From Octopus sinensis (lineage: Eukaryota): DNA of 48,563 bases. Position 1 is the stretch's first letter. The number at the start of each line of letters is the position of its first letter. Under the pieces are notes generated by a model that had not been told where the DNA came from, made no database searches, and saw only the letters and a program-made list of their open reading frames with translations. A program made the position numbers and the translations under genes. The DNA is taken from contig NW_021834440.1 of the NCBI RefSeq assembly GCF_006345805.1, positions 1 to 48,563 on the forward strand, given 5' to 3'. Below are positions 2,279 through 46,620 of this stretch, piece after piece.

Positions 2279-2309
2279 GAATAAATCACTGTGATTCTTT
2301 CATCAGTCA

Positions 2310-2520
2310 CAGGCACATGGCCTAGTGGTTAATGTGTTGCGATCGCAAGGTCATGGTTTCAATATCTAGACTGGGTGGTGTATTGCTTTCTTGAGCAAAA
2401 CACTTCATCTCATGTTACATGGTACATCGTGCACCGGTTCAGTCAACGTCGATTTCTTATAAGGAGTGAGCTAATATGCAGCACATACCATTGATCACTA
2501 TAAACAAATCATTTGTGCAG
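2310..2520 (+). mobile_element. Degenerate tRNA-derived SINE (head shared with family C)
   Basis: ggcacatggcctagtggtta (A box) is identical to the head of the 39922-40218 element; degraded B box; 'ttcttgagcaaaacactt' core. Confidence 0.6.
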
Positions 2521-2701
2521 GTCGTATGCCTCCCCCACCTTTCCAAAAGAGGCTGCTCGCTCATACGTTGTTGTCTTCGACGGGAGGGCCCATCATTAGT
2601 CAGATATATAAAGAAATATAGTGAATATATGCGTACTTACGACGTACAGGATTGTGAGCCTGTTTTGTGCTATTTGTAGCATTATTATTATACTTGTCAT
2701 T

Positions 2702-3277
2702 AAGGCAGCGAGCTGGCAGAAACGTTAGCACGCCGAACGAGATGCATAGCGGTATTTCGTCTGTCTTTACGTTCTGAGATCAAATTCCGCCGAGGTCGAC
2801 TTTGCCTTTCATCCTTTCGGGGTCGATAAAACTAAGTACCAGTTACGCACTGGGGTCGATGTAATCGACTTAATACCTATGTCTGTCCTTGTTTGTCCCA
2901 TCTGTGTTTAGCCCCTTGTGGGTAATAAAGAAATAGGTATTTCGTCTGTCTTTACGTTCTGAGATCAAATTCCGCCGAGGTCGACTTTGCCTTTCATCCT
3001 TTCGGGGTCGATAAAACTAAGTACCAGTTACGCACTGGGGTCGATGTAATCGACTTAATACCTATGTCTGTCCTTGTTTGTCCCATCTGTGTGTAGCCCC
3101 TTGTGGGTAATAAAGAAATAGGTATTTCGTCTGTCTTTACGTTCTGAGATCAAATTCCGCCGAGATCGACTTTCCCTTTCGAGGTCGATAAATTAAGTAC
3201 CAGTTGCATACTGGGGTTGATTTTAAGTGACTGGTCCCCTGCCCGAAAATTTCAGGCCTTGTGCCTAAAGTAGAAAA
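2702..3277 (+). mobile_element. SINE family A, trimeric array (head, two 185-bp tailed units, terminal unit)
   Basis: Head ggcagcgagctggcagaaacgttagc; units start at ggtatttcgtctg at 2751, 2936 and 3121; ends ccttgtgcctaaagtagaaaa like the monomer at 36933-37148. Confidence 0.9.
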
Positions 3278-3296
3278 TTTTATACTTCTCCTCACT

Positions 3297-3360
3297 GAGG
3301 CAGCGAGCTGGCAGAATCGTTAGCACGCCGGCGAAATGCTTAGTGTTATTTCATCTGTAT
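3297..3360 (+). mobile_element. SINE A head fragment
   Basis: gaggcagcgagctggcagaatcgttagcacgcc, truncated. Confidence 0.8.
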
Positions 3361-3805
3361 TAAATATATATTCATGCACTCACATACAAACATGTATACG
3401 CACACATGCGTGCGCGTACATATTTGAAAGTGTGTGTATGTGTGCACCAACATCCATATATATACAAGCATGTAATTGCTATACAGCTACACAAGAGAAA
3501 AGGAATGTCTGGTTAATCGTTAAACGTATATAATGTGCGCATTTTCTTATATAACAAAATTACCTATTTGTACAAATATGCTTATTTGTACTTATATCCA
3601 AATTCGATGAATACACGATCTTTGATATAATGAATATTGATGATATCAAATAACGGTTGTTGCCGATTTCATATATACAAGTTTCTAAATAGATTATGTA
3701 CAACGTGGGAGAAGCACATTTCACAGTGTTTTATGTTTTATCTTTCAGTTGGGACTGGATACTTAATATATAATAGTGATGGATACTTAATATATAATAG
3801 TGCTT

Positions 3806-4330
3806 GAGGCGGCGAGCTGGCAGAAACGTTAGCACGCCGGGCGAAGTGCTTAGCGGTATTTCGTCTGCCGTTACGTTCTGAGTTCAAATTCCGCCGAGGT
3901 CGATTTGCCTTTCATCCTTTCGGGGTCGATAAATTAAGTATCAGTTACGCACTGGGGTCAATATAATCGACTTAATCCGTTTGTCCTCTCTGTGTTTAGC
4001 CCCTTGTGGGTAGTAAAGAAATAGGTATTTCATCTGCCGTTACGTTCTGAGTTCAAATTCCGCCATGGTCGACTTGGCCTTTCATCCTTACGGGTCGATA
4101 AATTAAGTACCAGTTATGCACTGGAGTCGATGTAATCGACTTGATCCGATTGTCGGTAAAGAAATAGGTATTTCATCTGTCTTTACGTTCTGAGTTCAAA
4201 TTCCGCCGAGGTTGACTTTGCCTTTCATCCTTTCAGGGTCGATAAATTAAGTACCAGTTACGTACTGGGGTCATCTAATCGACTGGTCCCCTCCACCAAA
4301 ATTTCGGGCCTTGTACCTAGAGTAAAATAG
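3806..4330 (+). mobile_element. SINE family A, trimeric array
   Basis: Same head; units joined at aagaaata|ggtatttc (~4024, ~4167); terminal tail ccttgtacctagagtaaaa. Confidence 0.9.
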
Positions 4331-4412
4331 AATATAGTCTTCTACTATAGCTCCGGGCCGATCAATGCCTTGAGAGTAAATTTGGTAGACAGTAACTATG
4401 TGGAAGTCACTA

Positions 4413-4818
4413 TCTTTTACTTTTTCCAATCATTTATTTGCGGCCATGCTGGAGTACCATCTTGGAGAGTTTTAATCGAGCAAATTGAAACTAGAACATT
4501 CTTTTAAAGTCTGGTACTTATTCTATCGTTTTCTTTTTGCCGAACCGCTTGGCTACAGAGACATAAAAACACCAACACCAGTTGTCAAGCAGTAGTGGGG
4601 GGGGGGTAAACACAAGCATAAAGACACACACACACAGACACACACACATATATTTATATATATACTACGGGCTTCTTTCAGTTTCCGTCTACCAAATCCG
4701 CTCACAAGGCTTTGGTCGGCCCGAGGGTATAGTAGAAGGCATCTGCCAAAGGTGTTAAGCAGTGGGACTGAAACTGGAACCATGCAATTGGGAAGCAAGC
4801 TTCTTACCACACAGCCAC
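4413..4818 (-). mobile_element. SINE family B (tRNA head, internal microsatellite)
   Basis: Reverse complement of the copy at 16345-16730; further + strand fragments at ~4337-4408 and ~4960-5165. Confidence 0.85.
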
Positions 4819-13620: not shown

Positions 13621-14429
13621 CGGTGCCCCAGCATCGTCACAATCTAATGACTGTAACATGTAAAAGATATATTTGTGTGTGTCTGTCTGTTTATCCGTCT
13701 GTCTTTCTCTGTGTGTATGTGTTTGTGTATACTTTGTTTTATACTTACATAGACACGTAAATAAAATATTTAATTTGAAATTAGATTAAATAGAACACAT
13801 TATTCATTTACATATCTTCAATAAATATATGTTACAAGGAAAAAATTATACTATTTATCTATCAATTACAATATTACTGTCATTCAATGATAATGGATCG
13901 CGAAATTTTCGCTTTAGCTATATATATCTTCATTATACAACTTAAATATTCGAATCATTCAAATAACATCAAACTCTTCATTTCCATTTTTATTTTTTCC
14001 TTCAAAACATTACTTATTTTCACCAACGATTTAGTTGCAATTATTTCCTCATTTGTCACTTATTCTTCGATTGACTAAATCTTACTAAAATTGCCTGGAA
14101 AATTATGGAACCAAACATGCAGATTACTGATATATTTAGTTTGTATGGAAATATCAATTTTAATTTTATAAACTTTACAACAAACCAATAAAAACTGTAA
14201 GGATTATTTCTATTATTGAATTTGTTGTATTCCGTTTGCTATAGAAATTGCATTGTTGTTATAATTTACGTAAATATTTCTTAAGTGAATATTTGGATAA
14301 TAACCTTTTTTTTATGTATAGCTTTTGACATTAGAATAGTTATAAGACAGGACTTACGTCGAGAGATAGATTACAGGATATTAGGATATATCGATGACAG
14401 ACAGATGGTTAATATATTTTGTTACGCAC

Positions 14430-16260
14430 AGGCGGTATTTCGTCTGCCGTTACGTTCTGATTTCAAATTCCGCCGAAGTAGACTTTGCCTTTCTTTCATT
14501 TGGGTCGATTAAATAAATTCCAGTTACGCACTAGAGTCGATGTAATCGACTTAATCTCTTTGTATGTCCTTGTTTGTCCCCTCTATGTAGGCAATAAAGA
14601 AATAAATATATTTTTTTACGAACAGGCGGCGAGTTGGCTGAGACGTTAGCTTGCTGGGCGAAATATTTAGCGGTATCTCGTCTGCCGTTACGTTCTGAGT
14701 TGAAATTCCATCGAGATCGACTTTGCCTTTCATCCTTTCGGGATCGATAAATTAATTACCAGTTATGTACTGGGGTCGATCTAATCGACTGGCCTCTCCC
14801 CAAAAATATCGGGCCTCGTGCCTAAAGTAGGAAAGAAAATACTAGATTTTACGTTCTGAGTTCAAATTTCGCTGAGGTCGACTTTGACTTTCATCCTTTC
14901 AGGGCCGTTAAATTAAGTATCAGTTACGCACTGGGGTCGATGTAATCAAGTTAATCCCTTTGTCTATCCTTTTTTGTCTGTTCTTTTTTGTCTCCTCTAT
15001 GCCCTTTTTTGTCTCCTCTATTGCCCTTGTGGGCAATAAAGAAGTAAGAAACGTTAGCACGCCGGGCGAAATGAGTTCAAATTCTGCCGAGGTCGACTTT
15101 GCCTTTCATCCTTTCGGGGTCGATAAATTAAGTACCAGTTACGCACTGGGATCGATATAATCGACTTAATCTGTTTGTCTGTCCTTGTTTGTCCCCTCTG
15201 TGTGTAGCCCCTTGTAGGCAGTAAAGAAATAGGTATTTCGTCTGTCATTACGTTCTGAGTTCAAAATCTGCCGAGGTCAACTTTGCGTTTCATCCTTTCG
15301 GGATTGATAAATTAAGTACCAGTTACGTACTGGGTCCATGTAATAGACTCGTCCCCTCCCCCAAAATTTCGGGCCATGTACCTAGAGTAGAAAAGGATAA
15401 TTAAGTCCTAGTTGAACACTAAGGTTGATCTAATCGACTAGCTCTGTCCCACCCCCAGAATTCCGTATAGTAGAAAGGATTGTCCTTTCGGGATCGATAA
15501 AATAGAATATTAATCAAGAACTGGGGTCGAAGTAGTCGATTTGCCGTCATCTCACAATTGCAGACCCTGTGCAAAACATGGGGAACATCCCCCTTCAAGG
15601 TAACTATGTAAATCTTACTTACCCTCCTCTGCCGTAATCAAATAACCAGTGGTGCAAAAACAGAATCATTAGCGCGACCGACAAAATGTTTGATGGCATT
15701 TCTTCTAGCTCAACGTTCTGAGTTCAAATTCCACCGAGGTCATCTTTGCTTTTCATTCTTTCGAGGTCGATAAAGTAGAGAACCAATCAAGTATTGGGGT
15801 TCATATAATCGATCAGTCCACGACACAAAATTTCATCCCTTGTACCTTTAGTAGAAAGAATTGTCATTAATATAAAAGGGCAACTCCGTTCATATTCCGC
15901 CGGGGTCGACTTTGCCTTCCATCCAATCGAGATCGATAAATTAAGTGGTACCTGTGAACCACTGGGGTCGATTGTAATCGACTAGTCACCTTCACCAAAA
16001 TTTCAGGTCTTTTGCCTTTAATAGATAGCATTATTATAAAAGGCAGCGAGCTAGTAGTATTGTTAGCGCGTCAAACAAAACGCTTAAACGCATGTTTTCC
16101 GATTCTTTACTTTCTGAGTTTAAATCTTGCCAAAGTTAACTTTGCATTTCGTCCTTTAGGGGTCGATAGAAGAAAATACCAATGAAAGACTGGGGTCGTT
16201 GTAGTCGATTTTCCCCTCATCTCACAATTGCAGACCCTGAGCAAAACATGGGGAACATCC
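14430..16260 (+). mobile_element. Array of about ten same-orientation SINE A units of mixed age
   Basis: Repeated ttacgttctgagttcaaattc..gtcgactttgcctttcatcc..ctggggtcgat motifs; young units at 14430-15395, divergent units at 15400-16260. Confidence 0.85.
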
Positions 16261-16344
16261 TCCTTCAAGGTAACTAAGTAAATCTTACTTACCCACCCGA
16301 TTTACCTCTGCCATTTACACCGATGACGTTATCAAATAACCACA

Positions 16345-28900: not shown

Positions 28901-29016
28901 ATACATACATTATGTATGTATGTCTCTTCTACGTTTTGTATGTATGTCTCTCTTCCTGTTCTACTTCTATGTATGTATGTCTCTTCTTGTTCCTACATAC
29001 AGGAACAGGAAATGTT

Positions 29017-29419
29017 CTTTTCTACCCTAGGCACAAGGCCCGAAAATTTTTTTTTTTGGGGGGGGCAGTCGATTAGGTCGACCCCAGTATGCAACTGGCA
29101 CTTAATTTATCGATGCTAAATGGATGAAACGCAAAGTCGACCTCGGCGAAATTTGAATTCAGAACGTAAAGACAGACGAAATACCTATTTCTTTATTACC
29201 CACAAGGGGCTAAACACAGAGCGGACAAACAAGGACAGACATAGGTATTAAGTCGATTACATCGACCCCAGTGCGTAACTGGTACTTAATTTATCGACCC
29301 CGAAAGGATGAAAGGCAAAGTCGACCTCGGCGGAATTTGAACTCAGAATGTAACGGCAGACAAAATATCGCTTAGCATTTCGCCCGGCGCGCTAACGTTT
29401 CTGCCAGCTCACCGCCTTA
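29017..29419 (-). mobile_element. SINE A dimer with a 16-bp TSD
   Basis: TSD aggaacaggaaat(g/a)tt at 29001-16 and 29420-35; internal junction aataaagaaata|ggtatttcg. Confidence 0.9.
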
Positions 29420-30055
29420 AGGAACAGGAAATATTAACCAAATACCTGATGCACAAAATGTATAGAAATGCAGGAAAAGTAGTAAAAATTGACAACCGAT
29501 GCAGAACACCGAAGATATCACCCACGTCATAAGTAGTTATTTGAAAATGTCTTCACGATTGTATCTACCGATGAGACATGATCTTGTAGCTAGGGTATTC
29601 TATAATGATATCCGTCGGAAGGATAACCCCGAGGATAATAAGAACCCGCGGTATGGTAGAAGCCATAGCCGCTCATAATAAAAAGGAGTACTGGCGGAAT
29701 GTCCTAGTGAGAACCTCAAAAAAATGTAAGCGCAACAGACGTGATATAATGATTTGGGATGAGCAGAGAAACTGTGTAGAGTTGTAGAAATTAGCTGCCC
29801 AGTGAATGTTAGCATACAGCTGAAGAACAATGAAAAGAGAATACCTAGGCTGAATTATTGAGAAATCTACAGTTACTCTATCCAGATTACAATTTCAGGT
29901 TTATATCTGTAATTACTGGGGCCCTGGGATATGTAACACTGCCTAAATAACAATCTTCAGAAATTAGGCTTCTCAAAACCAGAAAAGTGAAAGCTAATTC
30001 GAAGACTGGAACTGTAAAAAAATGTGAAACTTTCCAGAAGTGTATCATTTAAATA

Positions 30056-36007: not shown

Positions 36008-37297
36008 CTACAAGGTTAGAAGTCATTGACACTTTTGTTTACCTTGGAAAAACACGTCAAGATGGCCGGCGGTCTTGATGTAGAGATATTCTGTTCTGAA
36101 TAGGGGAATGGCAGTGTTGCATTTGGAAACCTCGAAAAGCGAGTATGGGCAGATAGAAATATTTCCTTGCAGACAATACTCAGTGTCTATAAAACGTTCA
36201 CTGCACTTCTTTATTAGAATGAGACGTGGACCGCTTACAGGCGTCATATGAAAATGCTGGAGAGATTTCATCAAAAGTTCCACTGACATATCTTAGGAGT
36301 CAGGGGGGGGGGAATGTTTCATACCAGATAAAGCTCAATTGAACAACATGTTATCTTGGCTCAAATGAGATGGGCTGGTCATGTTATTAGAATGAAAGAT
36401 GAGCGATTGTCTAAGCGTCCTTATTACGGTAAGCTTAACTCTGTTAAGCGATTGCAAGCCGAGAAAAGGGTATAAAGAATGTGTGAAGGAAAACCTGAAC
36501 AAAATAAATATGAACAATAGTGATTGGGAAATTGATACTCTGGATCGGAACATGTGGAATGGTGCTGTTAGTACTAATTGCAATGCTTGGGAGGAGGAGA
36601 TGCTTCAGCGCTCTGAGCTTAGAAGGGCATGTCAGAAACGAACAATTAACATTGAAATCAACAGTGAATATTTGATATGTATTATGTGCGATCGTGATCG
36701 GTTATCAAAAGCAATATACGTGAATCATATGAAGTCACATGAAAATCGAATGTCCAGGCCATTAATAATCTTGAAATCCAACCGCCTCTTACAACTTGTG
36801 TCATATGTCACAAAACTTGTAAAACAAGATCTGGACTGAAATGACAGAAGCTAGTTCGCAAAAAGATTTCTTCAGGATCAGATTCCAAAGAGCAAAGATG
36901 TACAAGAAACTTGAATAATATCTGTCACTTGTAAGGCGGCGAGCTGGCAGAAACATTAGCACGCCAGGTGATACGCTCAGCAGTATTTCGTCTGCCGCTA
37001 CGTTCTGAGTTCAAATTCCGCCGAGGTCGAATTTGCCTTTCATCCTTTTGGAGTCAATAAATTCAGTGCCAGTTGCGTACTGTTGTCGATCTAATCGACT
37101 GGCTCCTCCGCCCACAAAATTTCGGACCTTGTGCCTAGAGTAGAAAAGAATATCTGTCACTTGTGCTTTAAACGCTGTCAGGAGTTAGTCTTAAATGTCA
37201 TCTGAAGCTTCACCAACGGAGGGAATTTGCTGTATGATGGGGTGATGTTTGTGTGTTGATGGGACGGCTATCGTCATTCAAGATGAAGCAATCATCA
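36008..37297 (+). mobile_element. RTE (BovB-like) LINE 3' part, decayed, interrupted by SINE A
   Basis: [43 protein letters not shown], then C2H2-like fingers. Confidence 0.85.
36933..37148 (+). mobile_element. SINE A monomer (216 bp) with a perfect 16-bp TSD
   Basis: aatatctgtcacttgt at 36917-32 and 37149-64. Confidence 0.95.
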
Positions 37298-39419: not shown

Positions 39420-40320
39420 TAAGTCAGTGAGCTGACAGAATTGTTACCGTGTCGAACAAAATGCGTAGCCGTATTTGGTCTGTCTTTAAGTTCGGAGTTC
39501 AAATTCCGCTAATGTTGACTTTGCCTTTCATCCTTCGAGATCGATAAAATAAGTACCAGTAATATACTGGAGTCGATGTACTTGACTCATACCTTCCCCT
39601 GAACTTGTTGGTCTTGCACTAAAATTAGAAACCGGATTGTAGATGTCGATCAGTCGGCCAGGTGGCAAGGATCATTACCGCCCTAAACAAAATGCGCTGA
39701 GATATTTCATCTAGTTTTTTTTTCCGTTCTGAGTTTATACGCCGTCAAGATCGATTTTGCCTTTCATGCTTTCGGGGCGCATAAATCAAGCATCACTTGA
39801 GCACTGGGGACAATGTAATCAAATTACCCCCTCCCCTGAAATTAGTGGCATTGTGCCAAAATTTGAAGCCGTATTATGGATGTCGATAAGGTTGCAGAAT
39901 CGTTGCTGCGCCGACAAAATGTTGTTGTTTGTTCCTTCTCGAGCCACGCCTGGCTCATAACGGCCGGTTTCCCGTATTCCATGGCGTATAGGTTCCCCAC
40001 CTGGACGGGACACCGGTCCATCGCAAGTGAGCTGCAAGATGCAGGAGGAAAGAGTGAGAGAAAGTTGTGGCAGAAGTTTGCCATTACTCTCTGCCGGAGC
40101 TGCGTGGAGCTTAGGTATTTCGGTCATAAACACACACATCGCCCGGTCTGAGATTCGAACCCGGGAGTCCGCTGCTCTAACCACTAGGCCATGTGCCTCC
40201 ACTAGACCATGTGCCTATGACAAAATGCGTAGCGATATTTCATCCAGCTTTTACGTTCTGAGTTCGATATAGCCTTTTATCCTTTCGGTACCAGTCAAGT
40301 ATTTTCACCAATGTAATCGA
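39420..40320 (+). mobile_element. Three degenerate SINE A-related units in tandem, the third split by SINE C
   Basis: gagctgacagaattgtta..., gagttcaaattccgc, gcctttcatcc motifs repeated. Confidence 0.7.
39922..40218 (-). mobile_element. SINE family C with a 9-bp TSD
   Basis: A box tggcctagtgg, B box ggttcgaatct, (AAC)n tail; TSD gacaaaatg at 39913-21 and 40219-27. Confidence 0.85.
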
Positions 40321-45195: not shown

Positions 45196-45275
<80 letters not shown>

Positions 45276-45279
45276 GATA

Positions 45280-45346
<67 letters not shown>

Positions 45347-45380
45347 TAGACAGACAGACAGATAAAATGTCAGACAGACA
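45195..45380. repeat. (GATA)n/(GACA)n microsatellite
   Basis: Direct inspection; abuts the LINE 3' end. Confidence 0.9.
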
Positions 45381-45384
45381 AATG

Positions 45385-46620
45385 TTTCTTTATTGGCCAC
45401 ACAAGGCTGAACACAGAGAGGACAAAATACATAGTAGAGCTTTTCTTTTTGGGGAAGAAGGAAAAAAAAGTGGGGCAAATTTCGATCAAAAGGGATCGTG
45501 AAAAAAAAGGCGATCAATAGGGATCGTGTATCAAAGAAATATCAATGTAAAAAGGGAAAACAGATTAGGTTTATCCGTAGAAAGAAAAGCCTACGGAAAA
45601 GACAACGGTAACCTTGAGCAATGTTATGCAAAAAAAAAACACATTACTGTATCTCTTTTTCCATTTTTTTTTTGTTCATAGGATTATGCTCAAGCTGGCC
45701 CCTACATTCACACGTGCCATCCTTGCTACATTCACCCATCTTTTTTGAAACATTTACAAGACAAAACTTCCCTCTCTACTCTCACCTTCCTTTTCAGGTG
45801 ATACTTGAAGAAGTTGATGAAAGATTGACCAGAGAGGTAAGTGCTGGTCTCTAGACCTTTCAGACGCGTCCACCATACACGTTCTTTTGCCATAGCCACA
45901 AGTATGATGAAAATGACTCTTCCTTTCCGTTTCAAGGAAGGAGGCGCGACAATATTCACGATAGACTTGATTGATAAATCGACTCGTCCCACATGCGATA
46001 GCAGTCGTTCGACATAGGTCGGAAATGATTGGACACTGTACGAGTGCGTGCAGGATGGTTTCGTTGCTCTGACCACATCTCGGGCAGGTCGGCCCTGTGT
46101 TTCTCGAGCCATGCCTGTAGAGCCTATCCCAAACAGGTAGCACTTCTCGATAGCACTGCTAGGCCAGGGATCTCTGGAAGCTGTCCATAGGTCTCGGCCC
46201 GAAAGTCGTCTTGAACAGGCGGGTCTGGTATTCCTCATCGACCCCCAAGTTCGCCCCGAGATCGTCGTCGTACCTCCTCTTCCCTAATCCCCTACAGAAT
46301 ATTTTGGTTGTGTTGAAGTCGCTCAAGGTCGACCCGGGACGGCATAGTTGCTTGAGAGCAACTCGCGGTGCCATTCGCCCTTCCTCGACCTCTTTTTGGT
46401 CCACGACTGCAGTTCGGACATAAAGACGAGCTGCAGGAAAGCGTGCCTCACAAATGGCCACCACACCTGTTCACCGTCGTCTACGCAGGGCCGGAGATGT
46501 CGCAGTCTCAGCGCGTGTCTGCGCATCGTCAACCACGGCATGCCTAGCCCTCCTTTTAACGGGTGATGGCAGCAAACGGATCGCCTGACCATCAGAACGC
46601 ATCCTTTTCACAAGAAGAAG
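45385..46620 (-). mobile_element. Tx1/L1-clade LINE, 5'-truncated (ORF2 C-terminus plus 3' UTR)
   Basis: CHHPLKGGLGMP, FQRSLA..LPVWDRL, CPRCGQSNETILHALVQC (CCHC), AKERVWWTR; ends gccaataaagaaa. Confidence 0.88.

Follow-up and report, generated by a model that had tools for sequence, protein, structure and literature searches.

Target-specific long interspersed elements (LINEs) are known for ribosomal RNA (rRNA) genes, small nuclear RNA (snRNA) genes, telomeres, microsatellites and a few DNA transposons, and the dimers and trimers of Alu-like and tRNA-derived short interspersed elements (SINEs) move as units, with a fixed architecture that comes from a master. Among the cases described in the accessible text of Kojima (2015; PMC4494074), Tx1 resides in Tx1D of Xenopus, Keno in U2 snRNA genes and Kibi/Koshi in microsatellites, and the Tx1-Mar LINEs and SINEU SINEs of crocodilians both insert into a Mariner element; tandem SINEU-3 copies are attributed in the same text to sequential insertion at a regenerated target. 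In the accessible part of McGurk and Barbash (bioRxiv 10.1101/158386), insertion-site preference yields tandem dimers by double insertion, and an R1 array carries a 33-nt duplication of ribosomal DNA. Here we analyze tandemly joined SINEs of Octopus sinensis in a 48,563-nt stretch (contig NW_021834440.1 of assembly GCF_006345805.1, positions 1 to 48,563 of the forward strand; hereafter the window) and, by exact-pattern search, in the 2.72-Gb assembly.

The units of these arrays meet at one fixed junction, which is probably a preferred integration site, (G/C)GTATTTCG, located at the head/body boundary of the SINE and used by LINEs of the L1 group and by a SINE with a related tail; repeated insertion there likely builds arrays of the form head+(body+tail)n. 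As in Tx1-Mar and SINEU-3, so far as the available text describes them, a LINE with a target preference and a SINE of related insertion behaviour share one multicopy target that is itself a mobile element. The target in crocodilians is a Mariner DNA transposon, whereas in octopods it lies inside the SINE's own family; the SINEU-3 tandems sandwich a target-site duplication (TSD), whereas most joins in the octopod arrays have neither a TSD nor a second head, and at least five units are reached. The likeness to double-insertion dimers, as the available part of that preprint presents them, is that site preference and a surviving target lead to head-to-tail tandems open to later expansion through unequal exchange. 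There the repeated target belongs to the host or flank, whereas in the octopod it lies within the element, so that body and tail alone are repeated.

The junction and its target motif

According to a blastn map and direct reading, the SINE in the window consists of a head of ~48 nt, a body of ~118 nt and one of two tails, with a unit length of ~233 bp. The body begins with GGTATTTCG and includes the B-box-like gagttcaaattcc; tail A (~66 nt) terminates in ...ccccttgtgggtAATAAAGAAATA and tail B in ...gtagaaaa. Four arrays (2703-3290, 3807-4327, 14848-15394 and, on the reverse strand, 29417-29018) have a single head, then tail-A units and a final tail-B unit. We take gagctggcagaa and gagttcaaattcc to be A- and B-box-like motifs by their resemblance to the usual consensus, and the body may bear some resemblance to that of CORE-SINEs, which are marked by a conserved CORE domain, or of octopus OR1-OR2 (Ohshima and Okada 1994). 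ARAGORN found no tRNA in the SINE head, and Rfam gave no match on a window array even at E<=1. Octopus SINEs are mainly tRNA-Core and tRNA-Deu according to the accessible text of reviews (PMC8967140).

The exact 16-mer AAGAAATAGGTATTTC occurs six times in the window, five times on the forward strand (2928-2943, 3113-3128, 4016-4031, 4159-4174 and 15224-15239) and once on the reverse strand (29178-29193), in agreement with the first-pass annotation of this DNA, which had reported a fixed junction at these places. The tail end AATAAAGAAATA is found 13 times at one mismatch or fewer, against 1.51 expected, and none of 100 shuffles reached that count. Genome-wide, 18,252 exact 23-mer tails were counted. 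GGTA follows directly in 12,663 of them (69%, where base composition predicts roughly 0.3%), GGTATTTC in 6,204 (34%) and AGAAAC in 186 (1%); about one third of the tails stand at the SINE junction and about another third at GGTA followed by unrelated sequence.

The first 40 regions listed on contig 1 (L001-L040) contain 44 exact tails and were unselected for the sequence 3' of the tail. Fifteen of these tails enter a SINE body, the remainder belonging to stand-alone head+body+tail-A monomers. By eye, a TSD that starts directly after ...GAAATA and is repeated 5' of the head was recognized in 18 of 22 such monomers and not found in the other four; it begins with GGTA in 10 of the 18 and with near variants, e.g. 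GATA, GGTT or AGTA, in the others. TSDs at tail-A insertions are 8-23 nt long and lie at GGTA(T) motifs. Since GGTA both follows most tails and starts the TSDs of stand-alone copies, the break is ...GAAATA|GGTA..., and GGTA(T) is target sequence, not part of the element. The break point read earlier from the window stands in this form, although the motif is not peculiar to SINEs and occurs at non-SINE insertion sites also. The head/body boundary AGC|GGTATTTCG is itself a GGTA target, and so the SINE offers a preferred site. As the window contains 252 GGTA (64 of GGTAT were counted) versus 10 GGTATTTC motifs, usage of the SINE site is far above its share of GGTA sites.

Hardly any double insertions were observed at external TSDs with GGTA (186 tail ends, 104 of them internal junctions, in a sample where 60 of 100 loci were chosen for having the junction). 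The gap is 0 at 92 of the 104 internal junctions, with no TSD visible there. AGAAAC serves as a second site, being found in non-SINE flanks as well as at head position 16, and the junction onto agaaacgttagc reported earlier is indeed found at 15046|15047. In some monomers (L003, L024) an incomplete repeat of the initial ~13-20 nt of the head lies just 5' of the full head.

The first-pass annotation had viewed the tailed form as a derivative that inserts into its parental SINE, and had noted a TSD-flanked monomer without the tail. That monomer does have its TSD and ends in the other tail, B, but tail-A monomers are common (27 head+body+tail-A chains in 100 loci and the window), and the tailed form, which has a head of its own, constitutes a complete SINE family and not only an add-on. 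Tabulation of the sequences 3' of the tail, which the same annotation had proposed, places 6,204 of 18,252 tails at the SINE site, while the stand-alone copies have random flanks and TSDs of their own, the pattern it had named as speaking against self-targeting.

Insertions inside resident SINEs

The assembly was searched for a head end followed by GGTATTTC, 2-22 nt and a new full head, with an anchor of equal length in the B-box region as control. This pattern gave 85 matches, compared with 9 at the control anchor; the 85 represent ~55 independent loci and some short-period arrays. At 17 of 20 fetched loci (examples are L107, L109, L112, L113, L111 and L119), a full-length tail-A SINE or multimer between two identical TSD copies lies inside a resident SINE, the order being resident head, 10-23 nt of body start, complete tail-A SINE or multimer, the same 10-23 nt repeated, and the remaining resident body. 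The duplications start at GGTATTTC and include private variants of the resident, which ends in tail A, tail B or another tail. Three loci (L102, L108, L110) do not fit; in L063 the same arrangement is nested in an array, and divergence rises from the 5' to the 3' unit. These inserts are ordinary target-primed insertions into the SINE site. Site-specific insertion into the parental SINE, as proposed from the window, is upheld by them and by the excess over the control, but not as an exclusive habit (12,663 tails before GGTA against 6,204 before GGTATTTC).

Tandem arrays with a period of 65-76 bp (C1:195358953-195359251, C7:15322782-15323085, C4:103048075-103048276 and C3430:1372-2210) consist of the SINE head and the first ~16-28 nt of the body; they are satellite-like expansions of the head+TSD module made by site insertion.

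The same boundary is occupied by a LINE, designated here LINE-S, to which locus L025, where a non-SINE 3' end adjoins a SINE body, was the entry point. With its last 175 nt as query, all 40 scored matches (of 337 candidates) were 100% identical. All 14 fetched 3' ends run directly into T(C/G)GTATTTCGTCTG, and the SINE sequence beyond varies between loci. A search with the 3'-terminal 25-mer, in which a non-A tenth flank base was required, gave 136 matches; of the 100 listed, ~98 continue as a SINE start, in one the tail has slipped and TGGT comes next, and another is unrelated. LINEs at the same head position, which the first-pass annotation had suggested looking for, are thereby confirmed. 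LINE-S lies between the head and the body of the SINE, with locus-specific outer TSDs. Identity between loci is 85.7% for the flanking heads and 92.3% for the downstream SINE parts, compared with 99.1-100% for the LINE-S ends; because the LINE ends are near-identical and the flanking SINE parts diverged, a young LINE entered many older SINE copies at one base.

Six full-length copies of LINE-S (~5.4 kb) are 98.6-99.1% identical to each other over ~5.5 kb, and two copies have a single private difference each across 5.36 kb. Its open reading frames (ORFs) are intact: ORF1 (520 aa) contains a zf-CCHC domain, and ORF2 (1134-1169 aa) combines Exo_endo_phos, an endonuclease of the apurinic/apyrimidinic (APE) type, with RVT_1 and zf-RVT. 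The best solved match of ORF2 is human L1 ORF2p (E 4e-63; R2 at 1e-20), and the protein is 58% identical to a protein of the LINE type present in the window. LINE-S is apparently active and almost confined to a SINE. Its sequence-specific multicopy target and its APE and reverse transcriptase (RT) describe behaviour and domains and are no proof of membership in the Tx1 clade; lists of its homologues gave domains but no clade name. The last ~46 nt of the SINE are ~80% alike to the LINE-S 3' end and similar too to two other LINE families (families 1 and 2, below); the tail common to the SINE and LINE-S is about 46-75 nt. The 3' region of LINE-S is present without differences in reads of organisms B and D, and short-read contigs at its junction with the SINE (L158:7650-8060) end at the junction. 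No ribozyme or tRNA was recognized at the 5' junction by Rfam at E<=1.

On the 5' side of LINE-S, after the head, six copies read (C/G)GTATTTCGTCTG(T)CG, and the 3' side reads (C/G)GTATTTCGTCTGCCG; the first base matches across both sides in six of six loci. At column 14 of this 16-nt repeat T is found upstream in five of six loci and C downstream in all six, which implies that most of the upstream repeat travels with LINE-S.

The first base of the SINE body at LINE-S junctions (L143-L162 and the listed matches) is C in about six of ten copies, versus ~9% among SINE units; copies with this C have heads ending in GCGTAGCC. No internal site of LINE-S that splits the C and non-C copies was found, and the excess could reflect either preferential use of a particular SINE subfamily or bases that the LINE brings with it. 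An A-run of ~11-21 A lies ~215 nt before the 3' end, in the 3' untranslated region, and varies in length among otherwise identical copies (L143-L156).

In the mechanism that we propose, the LINE endonuclease would place a bottom-strand nick directly to the left of GGTA, from which reverse transcription would be primed. The new cDNA would be homologous to the resident head and body start, and its 5' end could be joined by homology with no visible TSD. RNA of the tail-A SINE, homologous over the whole head and body, would add one body+tail unit and no second head; the SINE-like end of the LINE-S cDNA would pair with the resident copy and be joined in the same manner. Multimers contain no T4 run within a unit and would therefore be transcribed whole from the single head. 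Some multimers probably move as units, and some units, e.g. 2751-3120, would have been duplicated locally at a later time.

Template jumping offers a one-event route to the same product: the RT would copy SINE RNA to GGUAUUUCG and jump to the 3' end of a second or the same RNA. A single outer TSD for the whole array agrees with this, pairs such as 2751-3120, identical at 184 of 185 positions, fit a re-copied RNA, and the extra GAAATA at 6 of the 104 internal junctions suggests initiation slippage. However, the RT would have no reason to leave the template at that base, the B-box-like region lying downstream of it, and units within an array differ in subfamily and CpG decay. Nor does a jump account for LINE-S copies 99-100% alike inside old SINEs, whose heads and bodies are 86-92% alike, or for internal TSDs with resident variants, and we regard this explanation as very unlikely.

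Age and origin of the array units

Units were compared in a sample of 100 loci and the window, 60 of the 100 loci having been chosen by an exact 31-mer across the junction. More than 35 array architectures were observed, with unit number, subfamily and terminal tail varying by locus. Two tail-A subfamilies can be distinguished, and in many dimers the 5' unit belongs to the young and the 3' unit to the old subfamily. Among the 15 arrays of L001-L040, 12 have the exact-tail unit in first position. Uncommon variants are more numerous in downstream than in upstream units (3.37 versus 2.15; 60 versus 28 pairs, n=102, p=4e-4), as is CpG decay over nine sites (1.42 versus 0.93; 35 versus 15 pairs, n=88, p=7e-4); very rare variants, present in two units or fewer, are too few for dating. 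Upstream units are younger than downstream units.

This age order bears on the possibility that the junction arose once or a few times in pre-formed multimer masters and was inherited as these were retrotransposed whole. Such masters are familiar from Alu-like multimers, which the octopod arrays resemble in having several related units behind one head, in the octopod with a putative promoter, and an A-rich linker that was formerly a tail; the architecture of Alu-like multimers is fixed, whereas in the octopod SINE it varies by locus. Whole arrays do lie within one outer TSD pair (window 29002-29432; L023, L063, L065), although the insertion model predicts outer TSDs too, and multimers are enclosed by a single TSD pair in L109, L113 and L120. 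Young-old dimers recur, and neighbouring units are correlated in their CpG decay (rho 0.49). Masters leave unexplained the same GGTA start of non-SINE TSDs, the presence of an unrelated 5.4-kb LINE at the same base and the TSD-flanked full-length inserts at the site; moreover, instead of constant architecture and units of equal age, we find wide variation in unit number and composition and older downstream units. As an account of the junction, masters are therefore unlikely, but arrays probably also move whole, as the correlated CpG decay and the multimers inside single TSD pairs indicate.

Local duplication of DNA, through unequal crossover or replication slippage between neighbours, makes a different prediction, that adjacent units resemble each other. 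Among 113 junction pairs, 8 are co-derived along the whole unit with private variants in common, including 2751-2935 / 2936-3120, and 18 are ambiguous, but the other 87 have no common uncommon variant beyond column 50. Unit identity averages 0.892 within arrays and 0.897 between arrays, so that general local duplication is rejected, the comparison leaving the other models unseparated. Tail-A arrays with private periods are known at C1:13585890-13586293 (~190 bp, with the extra GAAATA, as in L034) and C1:15259092-15259734 (~207 bp). These and the short-period head+16-nt arrays speak for duplication in individual cases, but heterodimers of different subfamilies or tail types cannot come from one unit, and a first dimer would still be needed at each of thousands of loci. 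As the general cause, tandem duplication is thus highly improbable. The pair 2751-3120 is a case apart: its units are identical at 184 of 185 positions with private variants in common, and so are co-derived. Local duplication or re-copying is the best reading of this pair, and the junction 2935|2936 is accordingly not taken as a join of independent insertions.

Several observations weigh against repeated insertion as the builder of the arrays. The common junction has no visible TSD (6,204 cases, compared with 85 matches of the TSD-bearing pattern), and insertion there is argued by analogy with LINE-S and the TSD-bearing inserts. The 16-nt repeat upstream of LINE-S is not a plain TSD, because column 14 differs consistently. 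The upstream units in 60 of the 100 loci were selected by an exact 31-mer, which biases them toward youth. The 8 co-derived and 18 ambiguous pairs and the correlated CpG decay belong here as well. Carry-over of the resident variants T14/T16 is not enriched in tail-A units upstream of tail B (2/17, versus 10/101 in all-A arrays), in a test that is weak because only about a quarter would be expected to show carry-over. No empty and filled alleles of one locus were seen, at a single-copy locus where contigs break in the SINE: a second copy of the window locus is absent from the assembly (a query of window 3400-3800 matched only itself), contigs of four read runs on window 2300-4500 broke inside every SINE, and the unique flanks 2389-2725 and 3316-3833 are present in reads of organisms B, D and E. 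Finally, non-SINE GGTA sites take about one third of the tails, while LINE-S is found almost solely at the SINE site; as the tails are less SINE-bound than LINE-S, the mover of most SINE copies may be an older relative.

Arrays of the window, related LINEs and significance

Array 1, on the forward strand, was delineated from the sequence, the blastn map and Tandem Repeats Finder (TRF). It has a head with an A-box-like part (2703-2750), unit 1 with body and tail A, ending in ...AATAAAGAAATA (2751-2935), unit 2 of the same composition (2936-3120, after the junction 2935|2936) and a terminal unit with body and tail B (3121-3290). T14, T16 and A29 are common to the first ~45 nt of the terminal unit and to units 1 and 2. 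TRF on 2751-3180 gives a period of 185, 2.3 copies and 98% matches; the likely outer TSD is ttatactt (2688-2695 / 3280-3287). Array 2 (3807-4327, forward strand) consists of a head (3807-3854), a tail-A unit of the older subfamily (3855-4023), a tail-A unit with an internal deletion (4024-4166) and a tail-B unit (4167-4327), joined at 4023|4024 and 4166|4167.

Array 3 (14848-15394, forward strand) starts with a 5'-truncated tail-A unit (14848-15046) joined to the second site, head position 16, AGAAACGTTAGC; a partial head with a tail-A unit (15047-15231) and a tail-B unit (15232-15394) follow, with junctions at 15046|15047 and 15231|15232. Array 4 is on the reverse strand (29002-29432), with head 29417-29370, tail-A unit 29367-29186, tail-B unit 29185-29018, junction 29186|29185 and outer TSD atttcctgttcc (29421-29432 / 29002-29013).

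The tailed unit that was said to run into spacer is a headless tail-A unit on the forward strand (14434-14604; 14411-14629 with its flanking direct repeats), and non-SINE sequence does follow it. A 25-nt direct repeat with two mismatches stands on each side (14411-14435 / 14605-14629) and is the unit's own TSD, marking an insertion outside the SINE site, just 5' of a forward-strand tail-B monomer with head, body and tail B (14624-14834, from the blastn map and reading). Another forward-strand tail-B monomer, 36934-37147 (36919-37164 with its TSD), is flanked by tatctgtcacttgt at 36919-36932 / 37151-37164, and its internal site, AGTATTTCG, is unoccupied. Around tail-B SINEs and arrays with a terminal tail B, the TSDs tend to start with (G)AATAT (window 36919-36932/37151-37164 and 29002-29013/29421-29432; L023, L065), and the tail-B partner may have a short target preference of its own. 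Relatives of this SINE body, older and diverged and with different tails, are clustered head to tail at 15400-16300 and 39422-39826, and a ~100-nt tail (...tctcacaattgcagaccctg...) is repeated at 15540-15640 and 16215-16300.

The window also contains a 5'-truncated LINE fragment of family 1 with a zf-RVT domain (45385-46300, reverse strand), whose 3' end, ...ggccaataaagaaaca, lies at 45385 and adjoins degenerate TGTC/TATC repeats (45196-45364). Its best named protein homologue is from argonaut. In ~65 of 100 listed copies this family ends ...AATAAAGAAACA directly before TATCTAT(C), so it was rejected as the SINE partner; it is either (TATC)n-specific or a seeder of (TATC)n microsatellites, and resembles in this respect the microsatellite-specific Kibi/Koshi as the available text presents them. 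The similarity of ttcgtctgtct in the SINE to the flank of the window LINE, pointed out in the first-pass annotation, is incidental. TAGA/GATA arrays are abundant in the genome (TRF). Family 2, reached via L072 (L131-L142), ends ...GGGTAATAAAAAAA, and most of the 12 copies shown have flanks starting TCAA(C/T), which led us to reject it as the GGTA-site element. With GGTA-site, TATCTAT and TCAA(Y) flanks, the LINE group comprises several lineages that differ in their short targets.

Leaving its clade aside, the octopod APE-type LINE finds a safe landing place in one specific multicopy sequence, as do Tx1, Keno and Kibi/Koshi; among the targets that the accessible text gives for these elements, none is a SINE with the LINE's own tail, unlike the octopod case. 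Our literature search, outside whose scope lay most subscription journals and Repbase Reports, found no report of a LINE that targets an internal SINE site or of a SINE homing into its own family. The working is the same as in known target-specific LINE/SINE pairs, but the target lies inside the passenger SINE's own family.

R2 is co-transcribed with rRNA and then processed. By comparison, an active L1/Tx1-like LINE found solely in SINE copies would have hundreds of thousands of harmless sites and perhaps a promoter, through co-transcription from the RNA polymerase III head and tRNA-like processing; in return it would move the tailed SINE, which would home into its relatives and expand into arrays. 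Such a closed LINE-SINE mutualism, where a single sequence would serve as target, as promoter and as passenger, is a tentative idea, and we consider it rather doubtful.

For annotation, the arrays are a warning: a 'new SINE subfamily' whose body is repeated may have arisen by insertion. If repeated insertion at the head/body boundary is correct, it would provide a natural case of homology-guided 5' joining in target-primed reverse transcription. LINE-S, compact and apparently intact, would be an APE-type LINE specific for a short, defined target and informative about how such endonucleases read sequence. SINEs make up more than a tenth of octopod genome DNA, according to the accessible text of PMC13282606, and the same process would explain the origin of SINE multimers and SINE-derived tandem arrays in octopod genomes.
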